64,000 nucleotides of DNA, from contig PS015064.1 of assembly GCA_048213135.1 (NCBI GenBank), positions 1-64,000 on the forward strand. The letters run 5' to 3'. Below the pieces are notes generated by a model. It made no database searches, was not told the DNA's origin, and saw nothing but the letters and a program-made list of their open reading frames with translations. A program made the position numbers and the translations under genes. Below, in pieces: positions 4,541 through 64,000 of this stretch. This DNA comes from Reclinomonas americana ATCC 50394 (lineage: Eukaryota). How positions within the stretch are numbered: position 1 is the stretch's first letter; every line of letters begins with the position of its first letter.

Positions 4541-34945
<30,405 letters not shown>

Positions 34946-36648: not shown

Positions 36649-39600
36649 ATGTCGGTGAGTTGCATTGATGGAGTGGGGGACGCTTGTTGTTCGCATGCTT
36701 CTCCCTCTCCTCTCATCGCTTGTCACTTGCTGCCTTGTGTGTGTCGCAGTTCTCTGTTCACGTGAGCGCGGCGCATGATTCATCGCTGTCGGTGGTGGTG
36801 GCGGGCATGTCGGTCATGTCCACTCTCGAGGACTTGCTGCGTGAGGCCACCCGCTTGATGCGTGAGAAGAGTGGGGATGGAGTGATGGAGATTGCGGGGG
36901 TGGAGAAACCAGCGCCGTACAACATTGTCGGCCTCGCCGCTGTTAAGATTGGAGATCTCGGCATCAACTCATCCACTCATCTCGTCATCCGTCTGAACCT
37001 TCGCGTGGCGCCACAGGCGAGTGGAGGACGCGGGAGTGGAAGCGAGAGGTGCGTTGCTGGATGTGTTTTAGAATCATATCTTTTGTGTCATACAGCTCGC
37101 TTATGTTCTAGATCTTCTTCACACAGCAACTCGGAGCGAGTGACTCGGTTTGTTTTGCTTCTCTTCGGCACCTTTCTCTCTCGCCTTCTTGTTCTTCTCT
37201 CGATGCGAGTGTGTGCTGACTATGTCTGTGTGCGCACGCAGCATGATCAACTCCCAGCGCATCAACATGGCCTTTGAGGTGATGGAGGAGGCCGTGCGTC
37301 TGCGCTGTCAACGCGCACTGGCGCAGTTCAGTCGCGATCATGCCGACTTTGATGTGCGTGCGTGGGTGCCGAGTTTCACGCCTACTGGTATGGATACGGT
37401 GGCAGTGAAGGCATGGCGTGAGCGACATGCTCCACTTCATACAGTGCGAGTTGCGCTTTTCAAGGAGAAACAGCCGGTGGTATTGGCCTGGCGTGCTGCA
37501 TTCGACGCCGACTCCTCGTCCGACCCTCCGTGTGATGGTTTCGACACGACGGCACTCGCCTCAATTGTGCTGTACTGTGGCTTCATTCAGGATGACGGTC
37601 ACAAGCTTATGCTGATTGACAATGTTGATGAACGGAAGGCAGTCGAGGAGCTGCACGGTGTCAGGAACAAGCTGAGACACGACGAGTTGCCATTGACGGG
37701 TGCCACTGTGCAGCAGTACCTTGGTGACGGTGGTGTCTTTCTCTCCATCCTCTCTCGACTACAGTTGACGGCTGAAGCGAGAGCTGAATACTCTGCTCGT
37801 ATCTGTGAGGCACGCCACGCTCGACTCATCGTGGACACATTCGAGGAGCGACTGCATCGACTGGCTGTGCGTGAGCTCTCATTCTACCAACACGACGAGA
37901 GTATACGCAAGGACACGCAGATGTATGTGCCACTGCTGTGCTCACGCGAACGTGAAGTCTCATCGAGTGACAAGATGACAGATTTGTTGACGGAGGTGGA
38001 TGCTTTCCTCTCTGACGCCAACACCACCCAGCGTGTGTTGGTGCTGTTCGGCAACAGCGGCGCCGGCAAGACTACCACCATGTCAATACTCGCTGAGCGA
38101 GCATGGCAACAGTGGCAGATGAGAGAGAGCAGACGAGTACCTGTGCGTGTGCCTCTTGGTGCTCTGCGCAATGCTGATGAGAGACTGTTGGAGGAGGCAT
38201 TGGAGCGACTGTCACCCGAGTTGGGATTGGATTCGGATGTGCGACGGTTGAAGGAGGAACCACTGTTGTTGTTGCTTGACGGGTACGACGAGTTGTACCG
38301 TGGTGTGAATCTGTTTGTCAAGAACCAGCTGGATGTGTGTCGTGATGTGAAGGTGATTATCACTTGTCGTGGCGATTACGCTCTGACGGTTCTGGGTGGA
38401 GTGACGCAGTATCAACGGTACTTTGCACCGGTGGATGCACGTGGACAGTTGTGCATGCAGCAGCTGATGGAGAGACACATTGCGCCGTTCAACAAGGAGC
38501 AGATTGAGAAGTACTTTAGGCGACTGGTGCAAGTGGGTGGTGATGACGGTGAAGTGCGATGGTCGACTACAGAAGACTACATTGGCGCACTGAAGAGTGT
38601 ACATGGACTGGATGCACTGGTGTCGAATCCATTCCTACTGGCAGTGGTGGCTCGTGTGTTGCCGGAGTTGGTGGCGAGTGGCGTGCAACGACCGACTCGA
38701 CGCGATGTGTTCGATCGATTCATTCGACAGTGGATTGTGAGGGAGCAGGAGAGGCAGACGCGTCTTGGTGCGGAGCGTGTGCCGAGTGAAGAGACGTGTC
38801 TCTCGTTCTGTGAGGGACTGGCACGGTTGATGCACGAGAGGAACGTGGTGCGTGTGTCTGTGATAGAGAACCGACCAAGTGAGGTTGATTTTGGTGGTGC
38901 GCCACTCGCCTTGCGACGAGTGGAAGAAGGACCGTTTGACAGGTTCCTCGGTCACAGGAACCAGCATGTGCGAGTGTGCTGTCCGATTGTGCGACGGTAT
39001 GGGACGACGCAGTGGGGATTCGTGCATCTGTCTTTGTTGGAGCATTGTGTGGCACGGCATGTATTTGCATGGGAGACGTGGGGCGAGGAGGGGAAATTGA
39101 CGGTGCAAGATGTGCAGCAGCATGTGTTGGGAGTGCGACTGCTGAATGATCGACCATCGTTGGTGGAGCAGATTGCCGAGGTGGTGCGACGGTCTCCTCG
39201 ATTGCAAGCGAGGCTGTGGGAAGTGATTGTGATGTCGAGGGAGGTGGATGAGGAGCAAGTGGTGACGGCCGCAGCGAATGCAGCGACGGTGCTGTGTGTG
39301 GCACAAGTATCGTTCAGCGGACGGGATCTGTCGGGTGTGCGAGTAAGGGGTGCTGATTTGAGGGATGCGGTGATGCACAGAACGGTGTGGAGCGGAGCGG
39401 ATCTAAGAAGGGTGAACGTGTGCATGGCGTTTGCGAGAGAGGCGGATTTCAGGGGAGCGGATGTCACGGGAGTGAGGTGGCCGAGGAAACCAATTGAAGG
39501 CCACACAGATTGGGTGTATGCAGTGGCAGTGACACCCAACGGCCAGCACATTGTGAGTGGCGGTAAGGACGAGACTGTACGGGTGTGGTCAGTGGCAACT

Positions 39601-41409
39601 GGCGAGGAGGTGCGCCGACTGGAAGGGCACGCAGGTAGGGTACTTGCAGTGACAGTGACACCAGATGGCCACCACGTCGTGAGTGGCAGTGGTGATCGGA
39701 CTGTGCGGGTATGGTCACTTGCAAGTCACGAGGAGGTGCGCCGACTGGAAGGCCACACAGAGTCGGTGAATGCTGTGGCAGTGACACCCGATGGCCATCA
39801 CATTGTGAGTGGCAGTGATGACAAGACTATACGAGTGTGGTCTGTGGCAAGTGGCGAGGAGGTGCGCCGACTGGAAGGTCACACGGATAGGGTGAATGCA
39901 GTGGCAGTGACACCCGATGGCCAGCACGTTGTAAGTAGCAGTGATGACAATACTGTACGGGTGTGGTCGGTGGCAAGTGGCGAGGAGGTGCGCCGATTGG
40001 AAGGCCACACAGATAGGGTGAATGCAGTGGCAGTGACACCCGATGGGCAGCACATTATGAGTGGCAGTGATGACAAGACTGTACGAGTGTGGTCTGTGAC
40101 AAGTGGCGAGGAGGTGCGCCGACTGGAAGGCCACACTGATCATGTTCGGGCAGTGGCCGTCGCACCCGATGGCCAGCACATCGTGAGTAGCAGTGATGAC
40201 AGGACTATACGAATGTGGTCGCTGACAAGTGGCGAGGAGGTGCGCCGACTGGAGGGCCACACGGATACAGTGTTTGCAGTGGCAGTGACACCTGATTGCC
40301 AGCTCATTGTGAGTGGCGGTGAGGACAAGACTGTGCGAGTGTGGTCGGTGGCAAGTGGCGAGGAAGTGCGCCAACTGGCAGGTCACACGATGTCGGTGTC
40401 TGCAGTTGCAGTGACACCTGACGGTCACCATATTGTGAGTGGCAGTGAGGACAAGACTGTACGGGTAAGGTCGGTGACAAGTGGTGAGGAGGTGCGTCGA
40501 CTTTTTGGCCACTGGGGGGAGGTGTATGCAGTGGCAGTGACACCCGATGGCCAGCTCGTTGTGAGTGGCAGTTGGGACGGAACTGTGCGAGTGTGGTCGG
40601 TGGCCAGTGGCAACGAGGTTCGCCAACTGGAAGGCCACACTCGTGAGGTGAACGCAGTGGCAGTGACACCCGATGGCCAGCTCGTTGTGAGTGGCAGTGG
40701 GGACGGAACTGTACGAGTGTGGTCGGTGGCAAATGGCGAGGAGGTGCGCAGACTGGAAGGCCACATTGGTTTGGTGCTTGCAGTGGCAGTGACACGCGAT
40801 GGCCAGCACATTGTGAGTGGCAGTGATGACAAGACTGTACGGGTGTGGTCGGTGACAGGTGGCGAGGAGGTGCGCCGACTGGAAGGCCACACGAGTTTGG
40901 TGTGGGCAGTGGCAGTGACCCCCGATGGGCAGCACGTTGTGAGTGGCAGTTGGGACTGGACTGTACGGGTGTGGTCAGTGGCAAGTGGCGAGGAGGTGCG
41001 CCGACTTCAAGGCCACGCGAGTTGGGTGCATGCAGTGGCAGTGACACCCGATGGCCAGCACGTTGTGAGTGGCAGTGCAGACAATACTGTGCGGGTGTGG
41101 TCGGTGGCAAGTGGCGAGGAGGTGTGCCGACTGGAAGGCCATACGAGTACGGTACTTGCAGTGGCAGTGTCACCCAATGGCCAGTACATTGTGAGCGGCA
41201 GTCGTGACAAGACTGTACGGGTGTGGTCGGTGTCGAGTGGCGTGGAGGTGCGCCGCCTGGAAGGCCGCACGGACGGGGTGTGTACAGAGGTAGATGGACA
41301 GCGTGTTCTTCCAAGTTGGAAGGACACACCACTTGCACACCACATTGGAGAGCTACTCCTGCGCATTCTCGGCTCCTTCCTGCCTGATTTCACCGGCGTG
41401 ATTTTGTGA
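36649..41409 (+). CDS. NLR-like STAND protein: ubiquitin-like - HEPN - NACHT - pentapeptide repeat - 14x WD40
   Basis: Exons 36649-36654 (MS), 36750-37048, 37112-37147 and 37242-41409 join in frame. UBL-like MSFSVHV...STLEDLL...KIGDLGINSSTHLVIRLNLR; HEPN-like FDTTAL and RNKLRH (37663-37680); Walker A GNSGAGKT (38050-38073); Walker B LLLLLDGYDE (38263-38292); VIITCR sensor; NPFLL; AAANAATVL plus pentapeptides (~39270-39475); 14 GH...VW repeats of 42 aa (~39495-41230). Confidence 0.9.
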
Positions 41410-42859
41410 CAAGACAAACGGGAGCTCGTGTAGCAACCCTTACATGTCTGCCGACTTACGGATTATGCAGGCACGCGTGGACCCCTAGCCTGTCGTGCAT
41501 GCAATATGCGCCAAGCCGAACTAGGTGCTCGGCGTTAACAATGTGCAAAATGACCTCAGCGATCGGACGAATCACAGTATTGGTTGTTTGTCGTCGCCGC
41601 TGGCTGCATCTATTTCTGATGCAGATGATCTTTGGTCCAGCTGCACCCCGGTCAAGGGTTTCGTGTGGTATTCTTCATGGCGAAGAGATGCCCTCAGTAA
41701 CCTGAGATATTCGTCGAGAGTACGCTTGTCGAGTTCCTGAAGTACATGTACTCCGTTGTTGGCTGGTGAGGGATGTATATTCGATGCAAGAGATGTCGCT
41801 GTACTCTAACGAGTTCACCTGCGCAGCGGATAGCGAAGATCACATACTCCGCCCGCAGCATCTCCATACAGCACCTGTCCACCACTCGGCGCACCTACTT
41901 GTTCTCCATGCCCATCTTCTTGAGCGACGTCCGGTGTGCACATGGGAAAAGGGAAGGGAGGGGGGGAAGGAAGGGATAAGTGGAGAAGGAGGAGATGGGA
42001 GGGGAGGAAAAGGGAATGGAGACGGGAGGAGAAGAGAAGGAGGAGACGGGAGGAGACGGGAGGAGAAGAGAGAAGAAGAGAAGGAGGAGAAGTGAAGAGA
42101 GGAGACGGGAGGGGAAGGGAGGAAAAGAGAGAAGAAGAGAAGGAGGAGAAGGGAAGAGAGGGGAAGGGAAGGGAGGAGAGGAGAAGGGAAGAGAGGAGAA
42201 GGGAAGGGAGGAGAGGAGAAGGGAAGAGAGGAGAAGGGAAGAGAAGAGGAAGAGAGGACAAGGAGGAGACGGGAGGAGAAGAGAGAAGAAGAAGGGAAGA
42301 AAGGAGGAGAGAAGGAGGAGAAGTGATAGAGGATTGGAGGAGAATGTTTGAGAGGGGGGATGAGAGGAAAGATGAGAGGAGATAAAGGAATGTAAGAGAA
42401 AGGAGAGGGAAAGAACGGAGAGAAGAGAGGAAGTGAGAGGTGAGAAGGAGAGAATAGAAACTGGGACCAATCAGAATGTGCGGTTGTTTCCGTGTGCGAG
42501 AGCTTGTGCAGTGTGACTGTGTGTGTATATGTGAGTTTGTGAGCGAGGACGGGAGAGTGAGACCTGCTCAGCTGGCAGGGATGAAAAGGATGTGAAGGGA
42601 GGAGGAATGGGGAAGCAGCAGTGAACAGAATGAGTGAGTTGTGAGATGCGTTATGTGGTCAGAGAGACACTGTGGATGAAAACATGTACGTTGAGCGAGA
42701 TGCATGAGATTACGTTGAATAGAGCCCCGTATTGCAGAGGACAGCTGATGGACTTTGTAGACTGGAGACATTTATGTCGACTGAATGAGCATTTCTGGAC
42801 GTCGGTAGTGGTTTCTTTGCGTCAAAAGCATGTTTTCCTTTCTCTAACTCTCTGCGAAA

Positions 42860-45800
42860 AGCGAGTTTGAGTCAACGTATTCCATTCACTCACACTGTGG
42901 ATTACAGTATTCAATTTGGTGGCGTCGGATCGTTCACTGCCGTCGCCGGTGGCCAACTTACCGTCTGTGAGTACGAGTGGAGAGTGCGAAGAGTGCAGAG
43001 ATCAAAATAAGTTGCTCATGTGCTTGTTGTGTTTTCGGCAGTGCCATTGCCAACATTTTCAATCCCAACCGTCGCGTCGTCATACACGGTGACAATCGGC
43101 AACACAACCACTATTGGTACGGGTCACCCAGCATGTCATGCTCACATCCATCATCCTTCTCATACTCCTTCATCTGTCTGCAGTTACTGGCGCAACAACA
43201 TCGAGCACAATCGGTCTTCGTGTCGGTTTGTCCGGACAAGTGGTGGTGCTGACGGTGCCAGTGGCCTCGTTCCCCTTTGCCACGCCGTCATTTACACTGT
43301 TCAAGAACGCCGACTGCCGCGGAAATGTGGCCACCATCATCAACGGCTTCAACAGCGCGTCTGATGGCACGACCTATACCATCACATGGACAATCGACAC
43401 GACTGGAGAGCCAACACCAACGAAGCAGCATGCCTGTCGTCCACTGACCTGGCAGGCTTTTTTAGCATGGCATCTGTATCCATTTGTTGCGTCCCTGCTG
43501 GAGATATTTTGCTGTCAAGTTTACTTCTTTTTCTTCTAATGAGGCGACCATGCAGATCGTGTCAAGAGCACTTCCGCGCCTTCCATATCCCAGGGTATCA
43601 AGTCGCAAACTGTTGTCTTGTCGAGTGGCGACTTCCCGTTGCTGGCTACAAGTGCCGCCAATGGCAGTAATCCAGTCACACCTGGCGGCACACCACTGGC
43701 ATTCTCCTCTCACTCGCCACCGACTGTTCGTCGATGGACTTGCGGGCGGCTGCCTTTGTGGTCACTGCGATGTCGCCGACGCGTATTACGGCCACGGTTT
43801 CCACCATTTCTGCGGTCTCACTCGCCTCGTGCACGCTGGATCCAACTGGCACGTATCAAATTTGTGGTCGGTGTGTTAAGGAGGGAAAGAGGGAAGGGAG
43901 GGGGGGAGAAAGAGAGAGGGAGGAGGGAGAAAGAGAGGGAGGAGGGGAGGGGGAGATGGGGAAAGGGAGGAACGACGGTGAAGAAAGAGAGACAGGGGAG
44001 AGAGGGTATTACCGTTGAGAGAGATATGAGCGAGGGGAAATGGTGTTGAGAAAGGGCGTGAGAGTGGATGGTGTGGGCAGAAAGAACAAAGCAGTGGGTG
44101 CCGTGAGGAGAGATGAAGTAAAGCGGGAGAGGCAGGTGAGCCACGAAGTTGAGCGTCTGTGTGTGCGAGAGAAATGGTAGGATGTGAATGAGAGGGCGGC
44201 TGCGAGAGGCAAGAGGGCTGACAAGCAACAGGGAAAATGAGTGAGACGCTGCTGGTGAGCCACATATGTGCGAGAGATATGCGAGGATGTGAATGAGAGC
44301 GCGGTTGCGAGAGGCAAGAGGACAAAGGAGCAATAGGAAAAGTGAGTGAGAGGCTGCTGGTGAGCCACGTATGTGCGAGAGATGCGCGAGGATGTGAATG
44401 AGAGCGCGGTTGCGAGAGGCAAGAGGGCTGAGGAGCAATAGGAAAAATGAGTGAGAGGCTGCATGTTAGCCACGTATATGCGAGAGATGCTCGAGGATGT
44501 GAATGAGAGAGCGGTTGCGAGAGGCAAATGAAAGTGAGAGACTGCATGCGCGAATGAGTTAGACTTTTTGTCATTCTCTTTCATGTTCAACGAGAAAAGT
44601 TGAAGGATAAGAGAGAGAATGCAATTGATCTAATGACGTTGCACCACCATTGACTATTCCACTGACAAAATATCTCCGCACAGCTTCCAAGATGGCTCGT
44701 ATGTGCCTCTCGGTGTGACATTGACCATCACGACCGTCACCGACCCCGATGTCGGCTTCATTTCTCCAAAGTCGTTGCCTCTCGGTGTGCCAACTACGCT
44801 GGTGTTGCATTCACCGTCGCGTACGCTGTCGAGTTGCTCTCGTTTCAAGGTGGTCGACGCTGGATCCGACTGCAATGGTCCGGTTTCGGGTGAGTGCTGA
44901 GAATGAGAAGATTCTGCGCGAGCGGCGGGTGGAGGAGATCTGTACTCACGGTTCACCCTCTTTGCTTATCTCTCTCTCGTCAGCGGCCCTTGCGCTTACG
45001 GCCTTCCAAGACGGCGTCTTTGATGCGTCGTCATGCTTCTATGGATCTGCTGCTGGCGGCTGTGGACANNNNNNNNNNNNNNNNNNNNNNNNNNNNNNNN
45101 NNNNNNNNNNNTGTGCCAACTACGCTGGTGTTGCATTCACCGTCGCGTACGCTGTCGAGTTGCTCTCGTTTCAAGGTGGTCGACGCTGGATCCGACTGCA
45201 ATGGTCCGGTTTCGGGTGAGTGCTGAGAATGAGAAGATTCTGCGCGAGCGGCGGGTGGAGGAGATCTGTACTCACGGTTCACCCTCTTTGCTTATCTCTC
45301 TCTCGTCAGCGGCCCTTGCGCTTACGGCCTTCCAAGACGGCGTCTTTGATGCGTCGTCATGCTTCTATGGATCTGCTGCTGGCGGCTGTGGACAGTTCAA
45401 GGTGCAGCTCACGAGCTCCAAGTCGGTGTATGCCACATTCTGTGTGGCAACCACTCCAGGGGCGACGTACAAGGCGGTGTCGAACAGCGACATTCGTGTT
45501 ACCTCGGGTATGCTGGTGCAGACGTCGTCGGTGGTGGCCAACCAGGCGGGTACAATTGTTGCGTGGTGAAGAGGGAAGGCGGGTGAAGAGGGAAGGGAGG
45601 TGAAGAGGGAAGGGAGGTGAAGAGGGAATGGGGGTGAAGAGGGAAGGGGGTGAAGAGGGAAGGGGGATAAAGAGGGAAGGAGGGTAGAGAGGGAAGGGGA
45701 GAAAGAGGGAAGGATGTAAAGAGGGAATGGGAGGAGGGAGTTTCGACAAGGAGAAGGGAGGGAGATAAAGGGCGATGTGGAAGGATGTGAGACGAGGAGA

Positions 45801-48547
45801 AGAGAGGTAAAGAGGGAAGGGGAGGGAGGGAAGTGAGTCGAGGAGAAGGGGGGTTTTGATGGCATTTTGCATGGAAGAGACAGAGGGTGGAAGTGTGTTG
45901 ATGAGGAAGCAAGGGAGAGAGAAGCAGACTGAAGAATGTCTGTTGAGTTTGTGTGCATTACAAGAGAGGGAAAGGCAGGAGGGAGAAAGGGAACAGATTA
46001 GCTTTGGAAGTGTGTGGATGGGAACGCGTTGGGGAGAGTAACAATGAGAAGTGTGTCTGTGGAGTGTTTGTGGCGCAAGAGAGGACCGTCAGGGGATGAA
46101 TAGGTTGTGGTATTGTGTAGATGGGGATGCAAACGATTAAAGGAGAACGAGGGCAAGGAGACGGAGTGGTTGTGGCAATGAGTGTGTTGATGGGGATGTG
46201 AAGGATAGAGAAACAGAGAGAAGAGTGTCGGTGGAGATTGGATGGCAAGAGAGGATCGTCAGAGGGGGGAGGGAAAGGATTGGTTGTGTTCGACAGTGTG
46301 TGGNNNNNNNNNNNNNNNNNNNNNNNNNNNNNNNNNNNNNNNNNNNNNNNNNNNNNNNNNNNNNNNNNNNNNNNNNNNNNNNNNNNNNNNNNNNNNNNNN
46401 NNNNNNNNNNNNNNNNNNNNNNNNNNNNNNNNNNNNNNNNNNNNNNNNNNNNNNNNNNNNNNNNNNNNNNNNNNNNNNNNNNNNNNNNNNNNNNNNNNNN
46501 GGTTGAGGGTGTGCACATGGGAATGCATTGGAGAGAGAAACAAAAGAGGAGAATGTCTGCGGAGGCTGTTTGTGTGTGTGTGTGTGGCAAGGGAGGATCA
46601 TCAGACGTGGGAAGGGAAATGATACCTTGTGGCAGTGTGGATGATAATGCATTGTAGAGATAGTAAGAATGAGAAGTGTGCCGTGGAGGTAGTGCGTGTG
46701 GTAAGAGAGGATCGTCAGAGGTGGGAAGGGAATTGATACTTTGTGGCAGTGTGGATGAGAATGCATTGGAGAGATAGTAACAAAGAAAAGTGTGCCGTGG
46801 ATACAGTGTGTGTGGCAAGTCAGAGGGGGGAAAGGGATAGCATACGTTGTGGTAGTGTGTGGATTGGATGTTATCGAGAGGGTTACAAAGCGAGCATTGT
46901 TAATGGAGGTTGATTCTGTATGCGAGAGAAAGGTTGGAGGGAGAAGAGAGGAAGGACAATTTGTCAATATTTGTGGTATTGTGTGACGACGGTAAGAGGG
47001 AGAGAGTACTAGTGAGATAGGCGGAGCGCATCAGTGGAGATAGTTATTGTCCTGCGAGAGTGAGAGACCGACTGGGGAGAGGAAAGGATTAGTTGTTCCC
47101 CTGTGTGATGTGAATGCACCGCATGGGGGGACGGGTTGTGGGTGACAGGAGTGGAAGACTTGAGGAGGGGAATGGCTGAGACTTTTGGGAGTGTGTGCTT
47201 GGGAATTCAACAGATGAGTGGCATAGAGGATTGAAAGTCAACTGTGCGTGCGAGGAGAGGAGGTGGGGGACAGAAAGGAAATGTTGAGGTGTTGTTGATG
47301 AGAGAAACAGCTACATGTGAGTGAGTCAGAGAGTTTATGCGTGAAACAGAGAGGAGTGACAGAGGAGCGGGTTGGATATCATGACATTCTAAATCGCATG
47401 GTGTCCACGGCTTGCATGCTGACGTTTGCTTCCTGGTTGTGCGACAGATGAGCACTGGCACTGGCACTCGCTCCGTGGAGATCACGCACCGCTTTGTGCA
47501 ATCGTTCCCGGCGATTCCCACTGTGCTCTTTGGCATCTCCGCTCTCTCCAATACGATTGAGGGCGACACTGACATTCGCTGCGCGCGGCCGTCGGTCACC
47601 GAGTTTATGCTGACGGTGCAGTGCTCGGCACTCGGCACTGCGCAGTTCGACTCGCTCGTTACCAGTTTCGTGAGAGAGGTTTAGTTCTCATGCACACTTG
47701 CATGGAACTCACGACCTGCGTGGCAGATTTCATCGCCATGTACGCGGACCCTGCCGCGACGTACACACACGACAACGAGTTGCCGCGTCAGAAAGCCGCC
47801 AATGAGTGGCTGAGCCTGGCCACCGACAAGAATTTCACTACGGTATGTTGATTCAAGCAGACCTGTGTATGGTCCTTGGACTCATTCATCGCGACCACGC
47901 GGCTGTGTGAGCAGGAAGTGGTGAATGCCCATGCTTTCGGATTCCAGACAATCCCCTCGATTGCGCTGGCGCTGACGGGTGTGCGGTCCATTCGACTCGA
48001 TTCGAGTGGCACGGCGCGCAGCGACAACTTTGAGGTGGCCGTCGGTGAGGCAGCCGCTGCCACCTCGCAGGTGCTGATGACGGTGCGCGGCGATAGTCGC
48101 GTGCAGGCGCTGGAGCTGCGTTCCATGCTGGTGGGATCGCGGCTGGTGCCGCGTGACAATTCCAGTGGCTACGTGATGGTTTCGGGCGGTGAGTTTGACC
48201 GCGAAGATTTGCCGGCAGTTGTGCACGATTGCTGACATGGATCACCGACATGTTGCACAGAGAGCACGCTGGTGGGAAACGCGCCGGTGGTAGTCACCCT
48301 CATCAGCCGTCAGTCAACCCGCGGGTTGAAACAGACTGATTTCCACACCGCCGCATTCTTGCGTGGATGGAAGACGACCGGCACTGGTGCATCGCAGGTC
48401 AGTCCGTCGATTCTACCGACAGATGTGGTTCCGTCGCAAGGCAGCGCGTCGAGTGGAGCGTACGGGCAGCTGACGGTGACGGCGAGCAGTGGGGGAGGTG
48501 TGGAGGAGACGTATGTGACGTGGGTGGCGATTGGCATCCCGGCGTGA
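42860..48547 (+). CDS. Multi-exon extracellular-type protein ending in three H-type-lectin-like domains; 5' end not found, possibly pseudogenised
   Basis: Spliceable exons at ~42860-42965, 43041-43116, 43184-43405, 43456-43518, 43556-43870, 44684-44889, 45310-45557, 47448-47664, 47727-47842, ~47915-48188 and 48261-48547. The C-terminal units show an H-lectin-like pattern (FVQSFPAIPTVLFGISALS; FGFQTIPSIALALTGVRS; TYVTWVAIG*). The model needs a GA donor at 43406 and a frameshift near 43705. Confidence 0.55.
44130..44545 (+). repeat. ~105-bp tandem minisatellite (about 4 degenerate copies) within an intron
   Basis: The block AGCCAC(A/G)TATGTGCGAGAGAT...GGATGTGAATGAGAG...GGTTGCGAGAGGCAA recurs at ~44257, 44362 and 44468. 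Confidence 0.8.
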
Positions 48548-48803: not shown

Positions 48804-48840
<37 letters not shown>

Positions 48841-49186: not shown

Positions 49187-50351
49187 ATGACAGCAAAGGT
49201 GTGAATTCGTGTGCACTTTTGCGTGGTTGGTGTCTGTGCGTGCATTCGTGTGCTCGTGCACGTGCGTGTGTGCAGTTATTGTTTGTGTGTCTTCGAATGT
49301 CGCTGCTGTGTGTGCGTCTCACCGCGAATGATCGGCACAGATCATTCAGAGTCTCGCAGAAGTGGGATCCGTCACCATCACTCCCGACGGCAAGCACATT
49401 GTTGGTGGGTGCATGGACAGTACCGTTCGTGTGTGGTCTTTGGCAAGTGGAGAAGAAGTGCGACGGCTGGATGGACACACCGACATGGTGATGTCTGTCG
49501 CCGTCACTCCTGATGGCCAGCACATCGTGAGTGGAGGTTTAGACAACACAGTACGGGTGTGGTCGCTGGAGAGTGGGATGGAGGTGCGACGGCTGGTGGG
49601 ACACACTGGATGGGTGTATTGTGTCGCCATCACTCCTGAGGGTCATCACATCGTGAGTGGGGGCTGGGACTGCATAGTGCGGGTGTGGTCGCTGGCGAGT
49701 GGCAAGGAGGTGCGACGGATGGAAGGACACACCGACACGGTGTGGTCTGTCACAGTCACTCCCGATGGTCAGCATGTGGTGAGTGGGGGTGAAGACAGCA
49801 CCGTACGAGTGTGGTTGCTGGCGAGCGGCGAAGAAGTGCGGCGGTTGGAAGGACACACTGACTGGGTATACTCTGTCACCGTCACCCCTGATGGTCAGCA
49901 CGTTGTTAGTGGAAGTGCGGATCGCACCGTGCGGGTGTGGTCACTGACGAGTGGAGAAGAAGTGCGACGGTTGGAGGGACACACTGGAAGGGTGTATTGT
50001 GTCACCGTCACTCCCGATGGCCAGCACATCGTTCACAGGAGCGAAGACGGCACAATTTGGGTGTGGTCTCTGGTGAGTGGCGAGGAAGTGCGACGGTTGG
50101 ATGAACACACTGGATGGGTATCGTCTGTGGCCGTCTCTCCCAATGGTCTCCACATTGTGAGTGCGGGTGGCGACGACAAGACCGTGCGAGTGTGGTGCAC
50201 GCCGCGTGGCCTTGCTCGTCTCGAACTCGACGCTGCGCGGTCGGCCATGCAGGCTGTGCAAGAGGAGGAAGAAGATTCACGATGCCTTCCCGAGCTGGTT
50301 CTGCGCTGTTTCATCGTCGAGGATGCCGAGGTCGTCCTTTTCCGGTGCTGA
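49187..50351 (+). CDS. Stand-alone WD40 propeller protein, copy 1 (7 blades)
   Basis: Micro-exon 49187-49198 (MTAK), GT-AG intron with CTCAC branch, exon 2 49341-50351 (IIQSLAEVGSVTITPDG...LPELVLRCFIVEDAEVVLFRC*). Confidence 0.85.
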
Positions 50352-52340: not shown

Positions 52341-52355
52341 ACGCACGCACGGAGA

Positions 52356-53248
52356 ATGACAACAAAGGTGTGAATGTCTGCGCACTTTGCGTGGTTTGTG
52401 TCTGTGCGTGCATTCGTTTGTGTGCGGGTGTTGTTCTTTGTGTTTGTGCGTGTGCGTCTCACCGCGAATGATCTTCACAGATCATTCAGAATATCGCTTC
52501 AGTGCGATCCGTCACCAGTACTCCCGATGGCAATCACATTGTTGGTGGGTGCATGGACAGCACCGTTCGAATGTGGTCACTGGCGAGTGGCGAAGAAGTG
52601 CGACGGCTGGAGGGACACACTGGATGGGTGTTTTCTGTCGCCGTCACCCCAAATGGCCAGCAGATAGTGAGTGGGGATGGAGACAACACAGTGCGGGTGT
52701 GGTCGCTGGCGAGTGGCAAGGAGGTGCGACGGATGGAAGGACACGCTGACTGGGTGTGGTCAGTCACTGTCACCCCTGATTGTCAGCATAAAGTGAGTGG
52801 GAGCAGGGACTGCACCGTGCGGGTATGGTCGCTGATGAGTGGAGACCAAGTGTGGCGATTGGAAGGACGCACTGGTGCGGTGTGGTCTGTCGCTGTCACT
52901 CCCGACGGCCAACAAGTCGTGAGCGGGAGCGGGGATGGCTCCATTCGGGTGTTGTCTCTGGCGAGTGGCGAGGAAGTGCGGCGGTTGGATGGTCACACTG
53001 GATGGGTGTCGTCTGTGGCCGTCTCTCCCGACGGTCAGCACATTGTGAGTGCGGGTGGCGACGACAAGACGGTGCGAGTGTGGTCGACGCCGCGTGGTCT
53101 TGCTCGCCTTGAACTCGACGCCGCGCGCTTGGCCATGCATGCCGTGCAGGAAATGCAGGAGGAAGAAGTAGATTCACGATGCCTTCCCGAGCTGGTTCTG
53201 CGCTGCTTCATCGCCGAGGATGCCGAGGTCGTCTTTTTCCGGTGCTGA
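52356..53248 (+). CDS. Stand-alone WD40 protein, copy 2 (5 blades)
   Basis: Micro-exon 52356-52367 (MTTK), exon 2 52481-53248, same C-terminal tail as copy 1. Confidence 0.8.
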
Positions 53249-55219: not shown

Positions 55220-56894
55220 ATGGCAACAAAGGTGTGAATGTATGCGCACTTTTGCGTGGTTGGTGTCTGTGCGTGCATTTGTGTGCTCGTGCATGTGTGC
55301 GGTTGCTGTTTGTGTGCTTGTGCATGTGTGTCTCACCGAGTGATCGACGCAGATCATTCAGAGTCTCGCTTCTTCGGTGCGATCCGTCACTGTCACTACC
55401 GATTGCCAGCACAGTGTCGGTGGATGTGAGGACCGCACCATCCGAGTNNNNNNNNNNNNNNNNNNNNNNNNNNNNNNNNNNNNNNNNNNNNNNNNNNNNN
55501 NNNNNNNNNNNNNNNNNNNNNNNNNNNNNNNNNNNNNNNNNNNNNNNNNNNNNNNNNNNNNNNNNNNNNNNNNNNNNNNNNNNNNNNNNNNNNNNNNNNN
55601 NNNNNNNNNNNNNNNNNNNNNNNNNNNNNNNNNNNNNNNNNNNNNNNNNNNNNNNNNNNNNNNNNNNNNNNNNNNNNNNNNNNNNNNNNNNNNNNNNNNN
55701 NNNNNNNNNNNNNNNNNNNNNNNNNNNNNNNNNNNNNNNNNNNNNNNNNNNNNNNNNNNNNNNNNNNNNNNNNNNNNNNNNNNNNNNNNNNNNNNNNNNN
55801 NNNNNNNNGTGGTCTCTGGCGAGTGGCAAAGAGGTGCGACGGCTGGTGGGACACACTGATGCGGTGTGGTCTGTCGCTGTCACCCCTGATAATCAGCACA
55901 TCGTGAGTGGAGGTGGAGACAACACCCTACGTGTGTGGTTGCTGGAGAGTGGAGAAGAGGTGCGACGGTTGGCGGGCCACACCGACATGGTGATGTCTGT
56001 CACCTTCACCCCTGATGGTCAGCACGTCGCGAGTGGTAGCTGCGATAACACAATTCGGGTGTGGTCACTTGCAAGTGGGCAAGAGACGCGACGATTGAAG
56101 GTGCACACTAATTGGGTACTCTCTGTAGCCGTCACCCCCGACGGTCGGCACGTAGTGAGCGGGGGTGGGGACAACACCGTGCGGGTGTGGTTGCTGGCGA
56201 GNNNNNNNNNNNNNNNNNNNNNNNNNNNNNNNNNNNNNNNNNNNNNNNNNNNNNNNNNNNNNNNNNNNNNNNNNNNNNNNNNNNNNNNNNNNNNNNNNNN
56301 NNNNNNNNNNNNNNNNNNNNNNNNNNNNNNNNNNNNNNNNNNNNNNNNNNNNNNNNNNNCGGGGAAGAGGTGCGACGATTGGAGGGACACACTGACTGGG
56401 TGATGTCAGTCGCTGTTACTCCAGATGGTCAACACGTCGTGAGTGGCAGTAGGGACAACACAGTGCGGGTGTGGTCACTGGCAGGTGGAGAGCTAATGCG
56501 ACAGTTGGAGGGACACGCCAGTACGGTGACGTCTGTCGCCGTCACCTCTGATGGTCAGCACATCGTGAGCGGGAGCGGAGACAGCACAATTCGGATGTGG
56601 TCTCTGACAAGTGGCGAGGAAGTGCGACGGATAGAGGGGCACACTGGATGGGTGTCGTGTGTGGCCGTCTCTCCCAATGGTCAGCACATTGTGAGTGCGG
56701 GTGGCATTGACGGGACGATACGAGTGTGGTCCACACCGCGTGGCCTTGCTCGCCTCGAACTCGACGCTGCGCGCTCGGCCATGCATGCTGTGCAGGAGAT
56801 GCAGGAGGAAGAAGTAGATTCACGATGCCTTCCCGAGCTGGTTCTGCGCTGCTTCATCGTCGAGGATGCCGAGGTCATCCTTTTCCGGTGCTGA
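55220..56894 (+). CDS. Stand-alone WD40 protein, copy 3 (at least 7 blades, two gaps)
   Basis: Micro-exon 55220-55231 (MATK), exon 2 from 55353, interrupted by N runs; same tail ending at 56894. Confidence 0.75.
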
Positions 56895-58917
56895 GTTGGT
56901 GAGTCGAAGGGAAGGTGGCTGCTGGTGACTGGGAGTTGTTTTTCGTGTCTTCTGAGGGAGAGTGGGTGATTGTGCGGGATGCAGATTGAAGAAGAGAGGA
57001 CGACAGACGAGAGGAGAGAAGTCGACGTGGATGATGCAGAATTGTTCTCTGTGCTTGTTGCCCTATCATGTGAGTGAGAGAGAGGTAGTGAAGCACGTCT
57101 CCCTCTGTGTGCGTGCCTCTTTCTCACCTCCGTTTGTGTATGCGAGCGAGATGAATCAATTGGAGTCTGTGATTTCTTTTCCCCTCGTTGTGATGTCTGT
57201 TGTGCGTGCATCTTTCGTCGCTGATATGCGTGCCTCATGAGAGCGAGTCACCGTTGTCTGTTTCCCTCGCGTCTTGTTTTTCGCACCTCCTTGGCACCGC
57301 CATACTCTGCTTCCCATTGTGCCTGTGAGCCGCGGACATTCTCCGTCCGTCTCTGCAGGATGCCTGTCTTTCAGCTCTCTTTTTCCTGCCTCCTGCAGAG
57401 TCTATCTCTTTCTCCGCCATCTCCCTGCCTTTGTGCGCTTATCTGCTTCCCCAGTAATCCGCCCCTCCTTGCCGCACTCGCTCAAGGCCGAGCATTCTGG
57501 TCTGCTCAAGATGCACCGACTGCCGTCCTGCCAGTCTATCATGGTGAGCTTCCCGATGCCGAAGTGTGTGAGATTGCCTGACTGCATACTGATTCTTCTC
57601 TCCCTCTCCTTTGCAGGATGGATGTGTGTGTACAGAAGCAACCTTTGGCTTGCCTCTTGACCAACCACTTGTTGGCATCAGGTGCTGATCGATGTGTTCG
57701 TCACGTGAAACCGAGCAGATGTCTCTCCTCTCCTCCATTCCTTTGCTCACTGCGCACCGACATGCAGAGGCCATGGAAGCACGTGTTCCTCGTCGTTGTT
57801 GTTCCGTAATGATTGCAGGCGTGCTGTACATCGCCCGCTGCCGGCTGTCACCTCACTCACTCGGCTCCCCATTCGCATCCCATCATGCACGAAGCAGGTG
57901 TGTGGCCTTGTTCGTCTTGATCGCTCTTTCTTCCTTCCCTCCCACTCACCTCATTCATGCAGGCCATGCATGTCATGGAGAGCGTGGCGTGGGTGGGTGT
58001 ACACATGCGTGTCGTGGTGTGCCATGGTGGCGTGGTCGGTGTATCGTTTTTGTATCCCGGCTGGCATGTCGGAGCGGATCGACGATGTGCACGCCTTGAT
58101 TGTCGCTCTCTGTGTCGAGCGACAAAGGTGGTGGCCATGGGAGACTGCAGACACGTGCGAGTCCAGCAACACATGGTGCGTGCATTTTCTGCATCTGAGT
58201 TGAGGAGCAAGTTGGTGAGACTCGCAGAAATTCTGTGTGTGATCTGAACACAGGCGTGCTGGCAAGTGACTGGCATACGAAGACACGTGGCTCCGTGCAT
58301 CACAGTACATGAGTGAGATGGTTCACCGACCGACTGTGAGTGCGATTGTATGCACGAGACAATGATTGTGACTGGGTGAGAGGGAGGCGAGTCTCACGAC
58401 AGCGCTGCCTCGTCCATCGCTGTGCTGCTGTGCTGGTCGCTGCTCTCCTGTCTCTTGTGGCTCTTTTCTTCATTGTCTCACGTCAACCTCGCTGTGGGCC
58501 GATCCAAGGAGGTGTGAGGTTTCGAAGACTCGGTGCTCCATGGATTGGCATCAGCACACCAGGGGCACAGCTGCACATGCATGCAGCACGGCATGCCAGT
58601 CCTCGTTGACAGAGAATGCAGGTCAGTAGAAAGAGAGTGTTGCTGGACAGCAGCGCGATGCAGTGGAGCGCCACCTTGTGTCGCCAGCATGTCCGTTCTG
58701 CCGATTTCTCATCGACGAGTCCCATGTCGGTCTTCGAAAGCCCACAAGCATCGACAAAGCCACATTGCTCTCATACTGCTGTATGTTATGTGGCGTACTG
58801 GCTGTAGCCTCGCGAGGGATGGACGACGTCTCAGAGCAAGGCGGGAGAAGAAAGGCGGGAAACGGTGACAATCCCGAGCGAGCAAATCACACACACACAC
58901 ACACACGCTCACGGAGA

Positions 58918-60107
58918 ATGGCAACAAAGGTGTGAATGTATGCGCACTTTTGCGTGGTTGGTGTCTGTGCGTGCATCCGTGTTCCATGTGTGCGGTTGGC
59001 TTGTGCGTGCGTGTCTTCAAATGTTGCTGCTGTGCATGTGCGTCTCACCGCGAATGATCGGCACAGATCATTCAGAGTCTCGCTTCTGCGGCGCGGTCCA
59101 TTACCGTCACTCCCGATTGCCAGCACATTGTCGGTGGGTGCTTGGACAGCTCCGTTCGTGTGTGGTCTTTGGCAAGTGGAGAAGAAGTGCGACGACTGGA
59201 TGGACACACTGGTTCGGTGTGGTCTGTCGCCGTCACCCCCAATGGCCAGCAGATAGTGAGTGGAAGTGGAGACTGTACCGTGCGTGTGTGGTCGCTGGAG
59301 AGTGGCGAGGAGGTGCGACGGTTGACGGGTCACTCCCGGGAGGTGTGGTCAGTCGCCGTCACCCCCAATGGACAGCATATCGTCAGCGGCGGCTTCGACA
59401 AGACAGTGCGAGTGTGGTCGCTGGAGAGTGGCAAGGAGGTGCGACGGCTGCAGGGACACACTGCAAGGGTGCTCTCTGTAGCCGTCACCCCCGATAGTCA
59501 GCATATAGTGAGTGGGAGCGGGGACTGCACTGTGCTGGTGTGGTTGCTGGCGAGCGGGGAGGAGGTGCTGCGGTTGGAAGGACACACTGGCATGGTGTGG
59601 TCTGTCGCCGTCACTCCCGATGGTCAGTACATTGTGAGTGGCGGTGCGGACCGCACCCTGCGAGTATGGTCGTTGACGAGTGGAAGTGAAGTGCGACGGT
59701 TAGTGGGACACACTCGCCCTGTGTGGTCTGTCGCCGTCACTCCCGACGGCCAACATATCGTGAGCGGGAGTGGGGACTGTACCGTGCGGATCTGGTCTCT
59801 GGAGAGTGGCGAGGAGGTGCGGCGGTTGGAGGGACACACTGGTACGGTGTGGTCTGTCGCCGTCACTCCCGATAGTCAGCACATTGTGAGTGCGGGTGGC
59901 AAAGACAAGACTATACGAGTGTGGCCCACGCCGCGTGGTCTTGCTCGCCTTGAACTCGACGCCGCGCGCTCGGCCATGCGAGCTGTGCAGGAGATGCAGG
60001 AGGAGAGGAGTGCCACCGAGGATGAAGTAGATTCGCGATGCCTTCCCGAGCTGGTTCTGCGCTGCTTCATCGCCGAGGATGCCAAGGTCGTCCTTTTCCG
60101 GTGCTGA
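58918..60107 (+). CDS. Stand-alone WD40 propeller protein, copy 4 (7 blades)
   Basis: Micro-exon 58918-58929 (MATK), exon 2 59067-60107 uninterrupted. Confidence 0.85.
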
Positions 60108-62367
60108 GTTGGTGAGTCGAAGGGAGGGAGAGCGGTGGCTACTTGTGATCGTGAGTTGTTTTCTTCGTGTCTTGCGCGGGGGTGCGGGTGATCATGTGGG
60201 TGCGGGTGGGGGAAGAGAGGACGACTGACGAGAGGAGAGAAGTCGACGTGGATGATGCAGAATTGTTCTCCCGTGCTTGTTGCCCTGTCATGTGCACGTG
60301 AATGTGATTGTGCGGGCGTGAGGCATGTCTCTCTCTGCATACGTGTCTTTTTCTCACCTCCATTTGTGTATGCGAGCGAGATGAATCACCTGGGAGTCTC
60401 TTGCGTTTTTTGTCTTGTTGTGATGTCTGTTGTGTGTGCATCTTCAGCTGTGCATGTATGTGCCTCAGGAGAGCGAGTCACCGTTGTCTGTTTCCTCGCG
60501 TCTTGTTTTCGCACCACTTTGGCATCACTGCTCTGCTTCCCATCGTACCTGTGCGCCGCGGACATTCTCCCTACGTTCTGAAGAATGCCTGTCTTGCAGC
60601 TCTCTCTCTCTGTCCCTTGCAGAGTCTCTCTCTCTCTCTTTCTCCGCCATCTCCCTGCCTTTGTGCGCTCATCTGATTCCCCAGTCATCCACCCCTCCTT
60701 GCCGCACACGCTCGAGGCCGAACATGCTGGTCCGCTCACCGTGTTACGATTGCCATCCTGCCAGTCCATCATAGTGAGCTTCCCGATGCCGAAGTGTGTG
60801 AGGTGGCATACCTGCATACTGACTCTGCTCCTTCTCTCTCTCTCCTTTGCAGGATGGTTGTGTGAGCGTCCCTTGGCTTGCCTCTTGACAAACCGCGTGC
60901 TGGTATCAGGTGCTTATCGGTGTGTTTGTCAGTGAGACAGAGCAGATATCTCTCCCCGTCCTCCATTCTTTGCTCACAGCACACCGGCATGCAGAGACCA
61001 TGGAAAGCATGTCGTGGCGAGGACAGGCGTGCTGTGCATCGCCCGTTGTCGATCGTCACCTCGCTCACTCGGCTCCCCACTCGCATCCCACGATGCACTC
61101 AGCAGTTGTGTGGCCCTGTTCTTCGTGATCTCTCTTTTCCTCCTTCCCTCCCACTCACCTCATTCGTGCAGGTCGTGCATACCATGGAGAGCGTGGCGTG
61201 GTGGGTGTACACATGCGTACCGTGATGTGCGATGGATGGCCTGGTCGGTTGATCGTTTAAATCCCGGCTGGCAAGTCGGAGCGAATCGATGATGTGCGCG
61301 CATTGGTTGCTGCTCACACTGCCGAGTGATGATGCTGGTGGTCATGGAAGACTGCAGACGCGTGCTCGGCAATCTACTCATGGTGCGTGCACATGTGTGC
61401 CGTGCTGTGCGATGCTGGCCTGGTTGGTGGATCGCAATCCCGGCTGGCAAGTCGGAGCGGATCGATGATGTGAGCACCTTGGTTGCTGCTGTCGCCGCCA
61501 AGTAATGATGGTGATGGCCATGGGAGACTGCACACGCGCGCGTGGCCTGGTGCGTACGTGTTCTGTATCTGCGTTGAGGAGTAAGTTGGTGAGACTTGGA
61601 GATGACTAACTCAATTCTGTGTGACAGGCGTGCTGGCAAGTGACTCGTCACTGGCATGCGAAGACACGTGGTTCCGTGCCACACAGTGCATGCATGAGAC
61701 GATTCACCGACCGACTGTGAGTGTGATTGAAGGGACGAGGCATTGATTGTGATTTGGGTGAAGGGGAGGCGAGCCTCACGACGCAGCTGCCTCGTCCATC
61801 GCTGTGCACGTGCTACTGTACTGGTCGCTCCTCTCCTGTTCCCTGTGACTCTCCTTCTTCGTCGTACCATCATGACGTGCACCTCGTCAGCTTCGCTGTG
61901 GGCCGAGCCAAGGAGGTGTGAGGTGTCGCTGACTCGCTGCTCAATTGATTCTCGGGTGTGCCGTGGCATCAGCACAACTGCGCCACAACTGCGTATCCAA
62001 GCAGCACGACATGCCAGTCCTCGTTGAGAGATAATGCANNNNNNNNNNNNNNNNNNNNGGGCAGTCGAAAGAGAGTGTCGCTGGACAGCAGCGCGATGCA
62101 GTGGAGCGCCACCTCGAGCCACCACCCTGCTTGTCCATTCTGCCGATTTCCCATCGACGAGTCCCATGTCAGTCATCGAAAGCCCGCACGCATCAACGAA
62201 GCCACATTGCTCTCACACTACCGTCTGTTGTGCGAGGTGCTGGCTGCAGCCTGGCGAGGGATGGACGACGTCTCGGAGCAAGGCGGGAGAAGAAAGGCGG
62301 GAAACAGTGACAATCCGGATATCCCGCAGCGAGCAAATCGCACACACACACGCATGCACGGCGGAGA

Positions 62368-63557
62368 ATGGCAACAAAGGTTGAATCTGCGCATTCGCGG
62401 GGTTGGTGTCTGTGCGTGCATTCGTGTGCTCGTGCATGTGTGCGGTCGTTGTTTGTGTGTTTGTGCATGTGCGTCTCACCGCGAGTGATTGATGCAGATC
62501 ATTCAGAGTCTCGATATGGTGCGATTCGTCGCCATCGCTCCCGATGGCAAGCACATTGTTGGTGGGTGTGTGGACGGAATTATTCGAGTGTGGTCTGTGG
62601 CGAGTGGCAAGGAGGTGCGACGGCTGACGGGACACTCTGATGTGGTGTTTTCTGTCGCCATCACCCCTGANNNNNNNNNNNNNNNNNNNNTGGCAAGTAT
62701 ATTGTCAGTAGCAGCTGCGACAACACTGTACGTGTGTGGTCTCTTGCGAGTGGAGAGGAAGCGCGACGGCTGGAGGGACACACCAGCACGGTGTACTCTG
62801 TCGCCGTCACCCCTGATGGTCAGCTTATTGTCAGCGGCGGCTTCGACAAGACAGTGCGTGTGTGGTCGTTGATGAGTGGGAAGGAGGTGCGACGGCTGCA
62901 GGGACACACTGCAAGGGTGTTGTCTGTCGCTGTCACCCCTGATGGTAAGCACGTTGTGAGCGGCGGTGGAGANNNNNNNNNNNNNNNNNNNNCAACACAG
63001 TGCGAGTGTGGTCTCTGGCGAGTGGGGAGGACGTACGACGGTTGGAAGGACACACTAACTGGGTGATGTCTGTCGCCGTCACTCCCGATGGTCATTACAT
63101 TGTGGGTGGGAGTGGGGACAACACCGTGCGAGTATGGATGCTGGCGAGTGGAGACCAAGTGCGACGATTGGAGGGACACACTGGTGCGGTGTGGTCTGTC
63201 GCCGTCACTTCTGATGGTCAGCACATCATCAGTGGGAGTGGGGACCGCACCATTCGGGTGTGGTCTCTGGCGAGTGGCGATGAAGTGCGACGGTTAGAGG
63301 GACACACGGACCTGGTGATGTCTGTCGCCGTCTCTCCCGATGGCCAGCACATTGTGAGTACGGGTGGCCAAGATAAGACCGTGAGAGTGTGGTCGACGCC
63401 GCGTGGCCTTGCTCGCCTCGAACTCCACGCTGCGCGCTCGGCCCTGCAGGCTGTGCAGGAGATGCAGGAGGAAGAAGTAGATTCACGATGCCTTCCCGAG
63501 CTGGTTCTGCGCTGTTTCATCGTCGAGGATGCCGAGGTCGTCCTTTTCTGGTGCTGA
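62368..63557 (+). CDS. Stand-alone WD40 protein, copy 5 (7 visible blades, two short gaps)
   Basis: Micro-exon 62368-62379 (MATK), exon 2 from 62498. The frame changes coincide with 20-nt N placeholders. Confidence 0.75.
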
Positions 63558-64000
63558 GAAGGTGAGTTTGAGAGAGGGAAGGTGGCTGCTGGTGATCGTG
63601 CGTTGTTTTTCGTGTCTTATGAGGGAGAGTGGGTGGGGAAGAGAGGACGACAGAGGAAGAGAGAGAGGTTGTTAAGGAAGAGTTGTTCTCTGTGTTTGTT
63701 GCCCTTTCATGTGAATGTGATTGTGCGGGGGTGAAGCATGTCTCCCTCTGTGTGCGTGTCTCTTTCTCACCTCCATTTGTGTGCAAGTGCGATGAATCAA
63801 TTGGAGTCTGTGATTTCTTTTCCCCTCGTTGTGATGTCTGTTGTGCGTGCATCTTTTGTCGCTGATATACGTGCCTCAGGAGAGCGAGTCACCGTTGTCT
63901 GTTTCCTTCGCGTCTTGCTTTGCGCACCTCCTTGGTGCCACTTTTCTTCCTCTCATTGTGCATGTGCGCCGCGGACAGTCTCTTTCCGGCTCTGCAGGAT

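Follow-up and report, generated by a model that had tools for sequence, protein, structure and literature searches.

What does a sensor propeller do when it stands outside a receptor? This question is raised by a locus of Reclinomonas americana ATCC 50394 (NCBI GenBank assembly GCA_048213135.1, contig PS015064.1, positions 1 to 64,000 of the forward strand; this whole stretch of 64,000 nucleotides (nt) is hereafter called the window). Here, a gene resembling those of the NOD-like receptors (NLRs; NOD stands for nucleotide-binding oligomerization domain) and carrying 14 WD40 repeats is followed, on the same strand, by a tandem array of at least five small genes (W1 to W5) for WD40 propellers without a NACHT domain. 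It is already known that fungal and bacterial NLRs can carry near-identical WD40 repeats that are hypervariable on the binding face. The new element is the array, a tandem family of NOD-less propellers that is intact, constrained, equipped with a private tail and diversified at the positions that would face the ligand in the NLR. We established the anatomy of the locus, the common ancestry of its repeats, the mode of their duplication and the pattern of selection acting on them. We lean, with some reserve, towards reading the array propellers as free-standing recognition modules with one common docking partner, where the expression of the genes, ligand binding, docking and an immune role are what we infer.

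An earlier note on this DNA had claimed at least five tandem NACHT-less genes of related repeats downstream of the NLR. In agreement with this, Tandem Repeats Finder placed five blocks of 126-nt repeats in this region (49371–50163, 52556–53086, 55809–56695, 59144–59892 and 62691–63359). They belong to five tandem units of 2.9–3.7 kb with one compact gene each (ATG-to-ATG distances of 3169, 2864, 3698 and 3450 nt).

49187–50351, forward strand: W1, with exon 1 at 49187–49198, an intron of 142 nt and exon 2 at 49341–50351; seven blades and a tail.
52356–53248, forward strand: W2, with exon 1 at 52356–52367, an intron of 113 nt and exon 2 at 52481–53248; five blades and a tail.
55220–56894, forward strand: W3, with exon 1 at 55220–55231 and exon 2 from 55353, interrupted by runs of N at 55448–55808 and 56202–56359; a tail.
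58918–60107, forward strand: W4, with exon 1 at 58918–58929, an intron of 137 nt and exon 2 at 59067–60107; seven blades and a tail.
62368–63557, forward strand: W5, with exon 1 at 62368–62379 and exon 2 from 62498, interrupted by runs of N at 62671–62690 and 62973–62992; a tail.
63558–64000, forward strand: start of a further spacer, of which 63575–64000 resembles the spacer start at 56908–57361 at 82%.

Since the window ends within this next spacer, the array may continue past it. The blades of W3 and W5 cannot be counted because runs of N interrupt both genes. In W2, for which seven blades had been supposed, five were found, two having been lost in frame.

The long WD40 frames of the array open right after a stop codon and contain no conserved in-frame ATG. 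In all five units, a 12-nt mini-exon (the ATG and three codons) with a GT donor is followed, 113–142 nt further on, by an in-phase, invariant CAG acceptor. The array genes are predicted to be two-exon genes, in which this ATG mini-exon is joined to a propeller exon. The same donor type, GTGT, begins 14 of 14 candidate introns in a large repeat gene further upstream in the window. Very short first coding exons are perhaps a habit of this genome: at 36649, where the earlier note had started the NLR gene, an ATG and one codon are followed by GTGAGT. The predicted array protein consists of four mini-exon residues, the propeller and a conserved, non-repeat C-terminal tail of 49–58 residues; with this tail and the upstream mini-exon, the genes are not made only of repeats, contrary to what had been stated. 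The assembled WD40 pieces of the five genes contain no in-frame stop codon. The whole units, including the spacers of 2.1–2.4 kb, are about 76–82% identical in DNA. Conservation is uniform along the spacers and 8–12 of the 30–39 gaps per copy are multiples of three, which points to non-coding spacers and rules out hidden exons in them.

The gene that shares its repeat type with the array ends 7.8 kb upstream of it (stop codon at 41409, first array ATG at 49187, same strand), close to the distance of about 8 kb given before. Its long open frame, 37150–41409 on the forward strand, encodes 1419 residues and is NLR-like. We divided the gene as follows.

36807–37048, forward strand: candidate first coding exon (80 codons and 2 nt), inferred from the DNA, with a donor AG/GTGCGT at 37049.
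37242–41409, forward strand: main exon, open without a break to the stop codon.
37243–38040, forward strand: orphan N-terminal domain of 266 residues, with an RNxxxH motif at 37663–37680.
38032–38526, forward strand: NACHT NTPase (PF05729, E 9e-10, 39.1 bits against a cut-off of 26.7).
39307–39408, forward strand: pentapeptide-repeat linker (PF00805, E 2.9e-6, 27.2 bits against a cut-off of 20.2).
39466–41229, forward strand: WD40 repeats, 14 units of 126 nt in two seven-blade sets, with a truncated fifteenth unit to about 41280.

As read from the DNA, the phase of the candidate first exon is compatible with a CAG acceptor at 37239–37241 that joins at 37242. Splicing of this upstream coding exon to 37242 is plausible; the exon matched no Pfam family. 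In the NACHT domain, the Walker A motif (GNSGAGKT, 38050–38073) and the Walker B motif (LLLLLDGYDE, 38263–38292) are both intact, and a helical region lies between the NACHT domain and the pentapeptide repeats. The 14 WD40 stretches (PF00400, E 3.4e-169) are each exactly 42 residues long, and Tandem Repeats Finder reported a period of 126 with 14.1 copies, 81% matches and a score of 2122 over 39496–41272. The earlier description as an NLR-like gene with 14 similar WD40 repeats was borne out by these NACHT and WD40 matches. The region from NACHT to the linker has 45 relatives at E<=0.001, with identities of 24–31% over 35–76% of the query region. The nearest ones are fungal (Mortierellaceae), and the relatives as a whole are mostly proteins with the order NACHT, pentapeptide repeats and WD40 (PF05729, PF00805, WD40), largely from Mortierellaceae, plus one Mycoavidus protein. 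The gene thus has two of the features of NLR-like signal transduction ATPases with numerous domains (STAND), namely a NACHT domain with Walker A and B motifs and superstructure-forming repeats at the C-terminus; searches of Pfam, 1.84 billion representative proteins and PDB sequences revealed no recognised type of effector or signalling domain at the N-terminus. Its predicted product is a NACHT-pentapeptide-WD40 STAND protein, which falls within a known design as a further, very divergent member. The NLR C-terminus was also considered as a decayed copy of the array tail, and this idea was rejected: the DNA aligns over the repeat start only, and the protein match was equalled by 69–316 of 500 shuffles.

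To compare the repeats of both parts of the locus, 38 blades (14 of the NLR, 24 of the array) were cut in one 42-residue register, and the shared repeat frame proposed earlier was found in all of them. Per-codon statistics were based on 13 NLR and 19 array blades; left out were the five last blades, with one residue inserted, and NLR blade 1, the first half of which does not look like a repeat. The most variable codons are 15, 16, 18, 34 and 36 in NLR and array alike, each with 5–8 different residues, and the next codons are clearly less variable. The chance that two top-five sets out of 42 codons coincide is 1 in 850,668, and the two top-five sets being identical, the claim that NLR and array vary at the same few positions holds. 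Codons 16 and 18 flank an invariant V, while codons 34 and 36 flank an invariant D, which gives a spacing of 2, 16 and 2. By this spacing, four of the five positions match codons 7, 9, 25 and 27 of the HET-E/HNWD repeats, which lie on the propeller top and are under strong positive selection according to the sections of Paoletti 2007 (PMC1805685) that treat them; at the level of these top-face codons, the parallel with Podospora drawn in the earlier note is sound. In a structural model of W4, the five codons fall in the loop between strands D and A or the first residues of strand A, and in the B–C turn.

The per-codon analysis of selection that the earlier note had proposed was made with omega, the ratio of non-synonymous to synonymous change, as a rough, pooled Nei–Gojobori estimate. 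For the NLR blades, omega is 3.3 at the five codons and 0.23 elsewhere; for array blades paired by position, it is 2.1 and 0.21, and for all array pairs 1.36 and 0.19. In six non-overlapping positional pairs of the array, non-synonymous differences at the hypervariable codons (42.3 of 75.7 sites, 0.559) exceed synonymous ones (58.5 of 189.7 sites, 0.308; Fisher one-sided p 1.3e-4), and those at the remaining codons of the same pairs (0.078) are far below the synonymous level (p 3e-13). The scaffold codons are under purifying selection, with omega of about 0.2, and the hypervariable codons outpace synonymous sites. Diversifying selection at paired top-face codons that flank V and D, the mark of the HNWD type, was found here with estimates that are rough. 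No two blades of the NLR (13 of 13) or of the array (19 of 19) have the same five-residue combination at the hypervariable codons, and no combination occurs in both sets. Purifying and diversifying selection together speak against the array genes being dead copies.

How the repeats came to be distributed over the two parts of the locus was examined by comparing the blades outside the hypervariable codons. There, DNA identity averages 85% among the NLR blades, with 94% in the best pairs, and is 70–77% among array blades and 67–71% between NLR and array. In protein, mean identity is 75% for NLR blades 2–14 and 69% for the array. In a maximum-likelihood tree of the 38 blades with the five hypervariable codons removed, the NLR blades form one clade, with a Shimodaira–Hasegawa-like approximate likelihood ratio test (SH-aLRT) value of 99 and a branch of 0.17. 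Another clade (SH-aLRT 100) unites the last blade of each of the five array genes, the penultimate blades group together (93), and several other same-position pairs join. The nearest neighbours of array blades are the same-position blades of other array genes. This grouping by position indicates that the array grew by duplication of whole units of about 3 kb after the blades had diverged. The longest exact word that the NLR shares with any array gene is 17–22 nt, compared with 36–70 nt between array genes, which indicates that there was no recent conversion between NLR and array. Concerted evolution was seen within the NLR, and neither between NLR and array nor within array genes. The sensor blades of the NLR are homogenised by exchange within the gene, and NLR and array, judged by their repeats, are two products of one WD40 repeat lineage, that is, sister repeat families.

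The array genes encode propellers of a familiar shape. W1 and W4 have seven Pfam WD40 stretches each, the number of a seven-blade propeller. An AF2 model of W4, built with the five paralogues as the alignment, has a mean predicted local distance difference test (pLDDT) value of 89 and comprises seven four-stranded blades, a helix at residues 289–316 and a last stretch of 27 residues with pLDDT < 50. Foldseek matched this model to seven-blade WD40 propellers, namely 5yzv (template modelling (TM) score of 0.96 on the target, 39% identity), designed WRAP-T propellers, 2ymu (40% identity) and WDR5; the best fold matches also include Tup1 and other adaptors. The tail DNA is 93% identical, with an omega of 0.28, and the last 27 residues of W4 are the best-conserved part of the protein. 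The model suggests that the tail is probably disordered until bound. A search with the whole of W4 returned only generic WD40 proteins, whose matches span the propeller and leave out the tail; the best one is 58% identical over 82% of the query, and 2502 proteins of 190–606 residues matched at E<=1e-20, with identities of 32–58% among the 120 matches listed. The prediction of a two-copy W4 complex scored 0.00 against a mark of 0.32 and is uninformative either way.

At the other end of the system, the NLR N-terminal domain resembles nothing found in our searches. Residues 1–274 matched no Pfam family at E<=10, the domain had no relative among the 1.84 billion representatives (phmmer) and no match among PDB sequences, and its 266 residues gave no BLASTP match to the two best NLR relatives. 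A single-sequence AF2 model has helices around the motif and is unusable (pLDDT 36, predicted TM score 0.22). The earlier note had called the domain a HEPN nuclease. This call found no support from hidden Markov models, sequence or fold; in particular, no profile of the HEPN (Swt1-like) kind matched. What points towards HEPN is RNKLRH at residues 141–146, which fits both Rx4-6H and RNxxxH, and the top match of the domain in a language-model Atlas, HEPN_Swt1 (PF18731), at 0.82, which is also attained by a third of shuffled proteins. Since Rx4-6H is present in 93% of domain shuffles, and RNxxxH in 1.6%, only the N of the motif carries weight. A HEPN-type ribonuclease at the NLR N-terminus is only a lead, and the idea is reasonable because HEPN-NACHT fusions exist in bivalves, as described in the relevant sections of PMC9646362. 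In those bivalve proteins (DZIP3/hRUL138-like), an Rx4H motif with N after the R precedes the NACHT domain, and some have C-terminal WD40 repeats (PMC9646362, same sections). The NLR is like them in having an N-terminal RNxxxH motif ahead of NACHT; it differs in lacking a HEPN profile match, with the Atlas score of 0.82 to HEPN_Swt1 as the sole pointer.

A stretch of 17 residues in this N-terminal domain (37540–37593, residues 100–117) resembles the stretch of the array tail that is best conserved (e.g. 60000–60053). The common pattern is D-x3-L-x3-VL-x-C-x4-D, and the likeness is marginal, being equalled by 13–29 of 300 shuffles. Similarity of the tail to the candidate first exon of the NLR was discarded, as 60–186 of 300 shuffles scored as high.

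How might such a locus work? By analogy with the Podospora HET-E/HNWD receptors and other fungal and bacterial counterparts, a ligand would be bound on the variable top faces of the two seven-blade propellers of the NLR, the NACHT module would oligomerise, and the orphan N-terminal domain would be activated as the output. If the array propellers are free-standing modules, each would bind a different ligand on its variable face, the invariant helix and the tail of about 27 residues would dock all of them to one common partner, and the array would form a small germline repertoire of recognition modules. Several points weigh against this reading. An immune function of the locus is suggested by analogy only. 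The only links between the NLR and the array are common ancestry and a distance of 7.8 kb; identity at the non-hypervariable codons is about 70%. The omega of 1.36 for all array pairs is close to neutral, and all omega values are rough because the proportion of non-synonymous differences at the hypervariable codons (0.5–0.6) comes close to saturation, sites within a codon depend on one another and there is recombination among blades. In addition, high variability was itself the criterion by which the hypervariable codons were chosen, an ascertainment that cross-validation between NLR and array eases and does not remove. The direction of the selection result is robust, but its numbers are not. 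Furthermore, W2 has five blades and blade 5 of W1 carries unusual scaffold changes, so some array copies may be decaying. The NLR blades, at 75% protein identity, fall below the threshold of 85% for 'high internal conservation' as set out in the passage of Dyrka 2014 (PMC4986451) that defines it. The array tail has no Pfam family and no homologue among proteins of 191–611 residues, and a metagenome scan with the tail alignment gave 214 pattern matches, none of which was confirmed.

The same evidence bears on the alternatives. A possible but doubtful one, which goes back to the earlier note, is that the propellers cooperate physically with the NLR, as detached sensors, decoys or inhibitors whose tail docks on it, one NACHT/effector chassis reading interchangeable sensors. 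NLR and array belong to one repeat lineage with the same hypervariable positions and lie 7.8 kb apart on the same strand, and the tail is invariant and predicted to be disordered alone, as might be expected of a docking motif; the weak alignment of its 17-residue stretch with NLR residues 100–117 would fit as well. However, this similarity is at chance level after allowing for several comparisons, the NLR has a complete 14-blade sensor of its own, and no recent sequence exchange links it to the array; with one NLR and one array seen, their linkage is indistinguishable from coincidence. We regard as quite unlikely the bolder version, in which the propellers, at least five in number, are interchangeable trans-acting sensor cartridges that plug via helix and tail into one chassis (the NACHT neighbour or its orphan N-terminal domain), with the 17-residue likeness as the docking pair. 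If it were true, a unicellular eukaryote would obtain a combinatorial germline-encoded repertoire from one NLR and a cassette array.

Other explanations dispense with recognition altogether. The propellers may be ordinary non-immune WD40 adaptors, such as substrate receptors or scaffold subunits, that arose from copied 3' repeats of the NLR or its ancestor, their face variation reflecting neofunctionalisation or relaxed constraint instead of an arms race between host and parasite. In favour of this, the top faces of WD40 propellers serve for interactions in general, the fold matches include WDR5 and Tup1, the repeat type is widespread (the 2502 proteins at E<=1e-20) and the omega over all array pairs is near neutral. 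We consider this unlikely nonetheless, given that non-synonymous changes exceed synonymous ones at the hypervariable codons in independent positional pairs (p 1.3e-4), that all 19 hypervariable combinations of the array differ, and that the NLR varies at precisely these five positions, of which four match HET-E. It is very unlikely that partial NLR duplications left the array copies behind as pseudogenes or unexpressed relics. A long exon without an opening ATG, the two blades missing from W2, the odd scaffold residues in blade 5 of W1 and spacers about as conserved as the genes might be expected of such relics, but the WD40 pieces of all five genes are free of in-frame stops, the ATG mini-exon, donor and acceptor are kept in five of five units, and constraint is evident in the scaffold (omega 0.19–0.23, remaining codons against synonymous sites p 3e-13) and the tail (0.28). 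Hardly credible is the remaining possibility, that the array is a stock of donor cassettes from which gene conversion diversifies the NLR sensor, like pseudo-V genes or the cassettes flanking the variable lymphocyte receptor (VLR) genes of lampreys. Tandem, related 126-nt units near the NLR and on its strand are what such a system would contain, yet the identity of about 70% at non-hypervariable codons, with exact words of 17–22 nt at most, the separate NLR clade on its branch of 0.17 and the lack of any common hypervariable combination tell against it; moreover, the copies are complete genes with a start, splice sites and a constrained tail.

Between the NLR and the array, the following gene was noted.

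43093–48547, forward strand: intervening multi-exon gene, seen as open reading frame fragments, with a sub-threshold H-type lectin match at 47385–47681.

The earlier note had placed a lectin-like gene here. A gene is indeed present, and one of seven fragments matched H_lectin (PF09458, E 9.4e-4); its lectin nature was not secured, as the match, at 19.7 bits, is under the Pfam cut-off of 24. The other six fragments tested matched no Pfam family, apart from a noise match to Urocanase at E 0.24. A coding stretch of about 50 residues is repeated on either side of a run of N at 45069–45111 (44725–45300), which reflects a local duplication or else an artefact of the assembly at the gap. Tandem repeats in GA-rich non-coding DNA occur at 31119–31702 (167 nt, 3.6 copies) and 44162–44527 (105 nt, 3.5 copies).

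The window as a whole has eukaryotic features, with introns of the spliceosomal type and GA/CA microsatellites, and contains 18 runs of N; Rfam and transfer RNA scans of it found nothing. Between 26000 and 50000, the GC skew is positive (0.2–0.6) on the forward strand, and all recognisable genes there lie on that strand. Two further genes were seen upstream of the NLR.

1388–3352, forward strand: ankyrin-repeat gene (Ank_2, E 7e-23), broken by a run of N.
5500–29000, forward strand: very large gene with dozens of Thr/Ser/Val-rich repeats of about 95 residues, mostly one per exon, and introns of 49–78 nt.

Two sample repeats of the large gene matched no Pfam family at E<=0.01; that it encodes a surface adhesin is only an impression.

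If the array is expressed, it would mean that hypervariable repeat sensors can exist as free-standing proteins, and it would add a further case in which a recognition repertoire has been built outside animals, plants and fungi. The question then raised is whether these modules would signal alone, via a shared adaptor or via the neighbouring NLR.

Among known systems, the HNWD/NWD proteins of Podospora anserina (HET-E, HET-D and HET-R; HET-NACHT-WD40) are similar to the NLR in that many WD40 repeats of 42 residues, homogenised within the gene, come after a NACHT domain. Their codons 7, 9, 25 and 27, like codons 16, 18, 34 and 36 here, are strongly diversified and paired around a conserved V and D in the D–A loop and the B–C turn, as far as the sections of PMC1805685 on these codons go, and a double propeller of 14 blades is of the HNWD type in the part of PMC12222747 that deals with it. 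In contrast to Podospora, the NLR has no HET domain and begins with an orphan N-terminus, a pentapeptide linker is present, the protein identity of the blades is lower (75%), and the NACHT region is 24–31% identical to any protein found. Moreover, Podospora repeats have been exchanged between family members, as reported in the corresponding section of PMC1805685, whereas NLR and array do not exchange theirs. The NACHT-pentapeptide-WD40 proteins of Mortierellaceae and Mycoavidus are the best relatives of the region from NACHT to the linker, from which the NLR differs in the low identity (24–31%) and partial coverage (35–76%) of the match and in its N-terminus, unmatched in the two best of them. 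Prokaryotic propellers of repetitive WD40 units (2YMU from Nostoc punctiforme and 5YZV from Thermomonospora) have the fold and the repeat type in common with W4. Unlike them, the array consists of five eukaryotic paralogues that are predicted to be spliced and share a C-terminal tail of their own, with blades that are orthologous by position and do not stem from recent amplification. In open-access papers and bioRxiv, main texts without supplements, we found no paper describing an NLR together with an array of NOD-less propellers. In plant and animal NLR clusters, NOD-less paralogues do stand beside full-length receptors, and such fragments are usually treated as decaying copies. The array differs from these truncated relatives in that its scaffold and tail are under purifying selection, while its binding face has been diversified.

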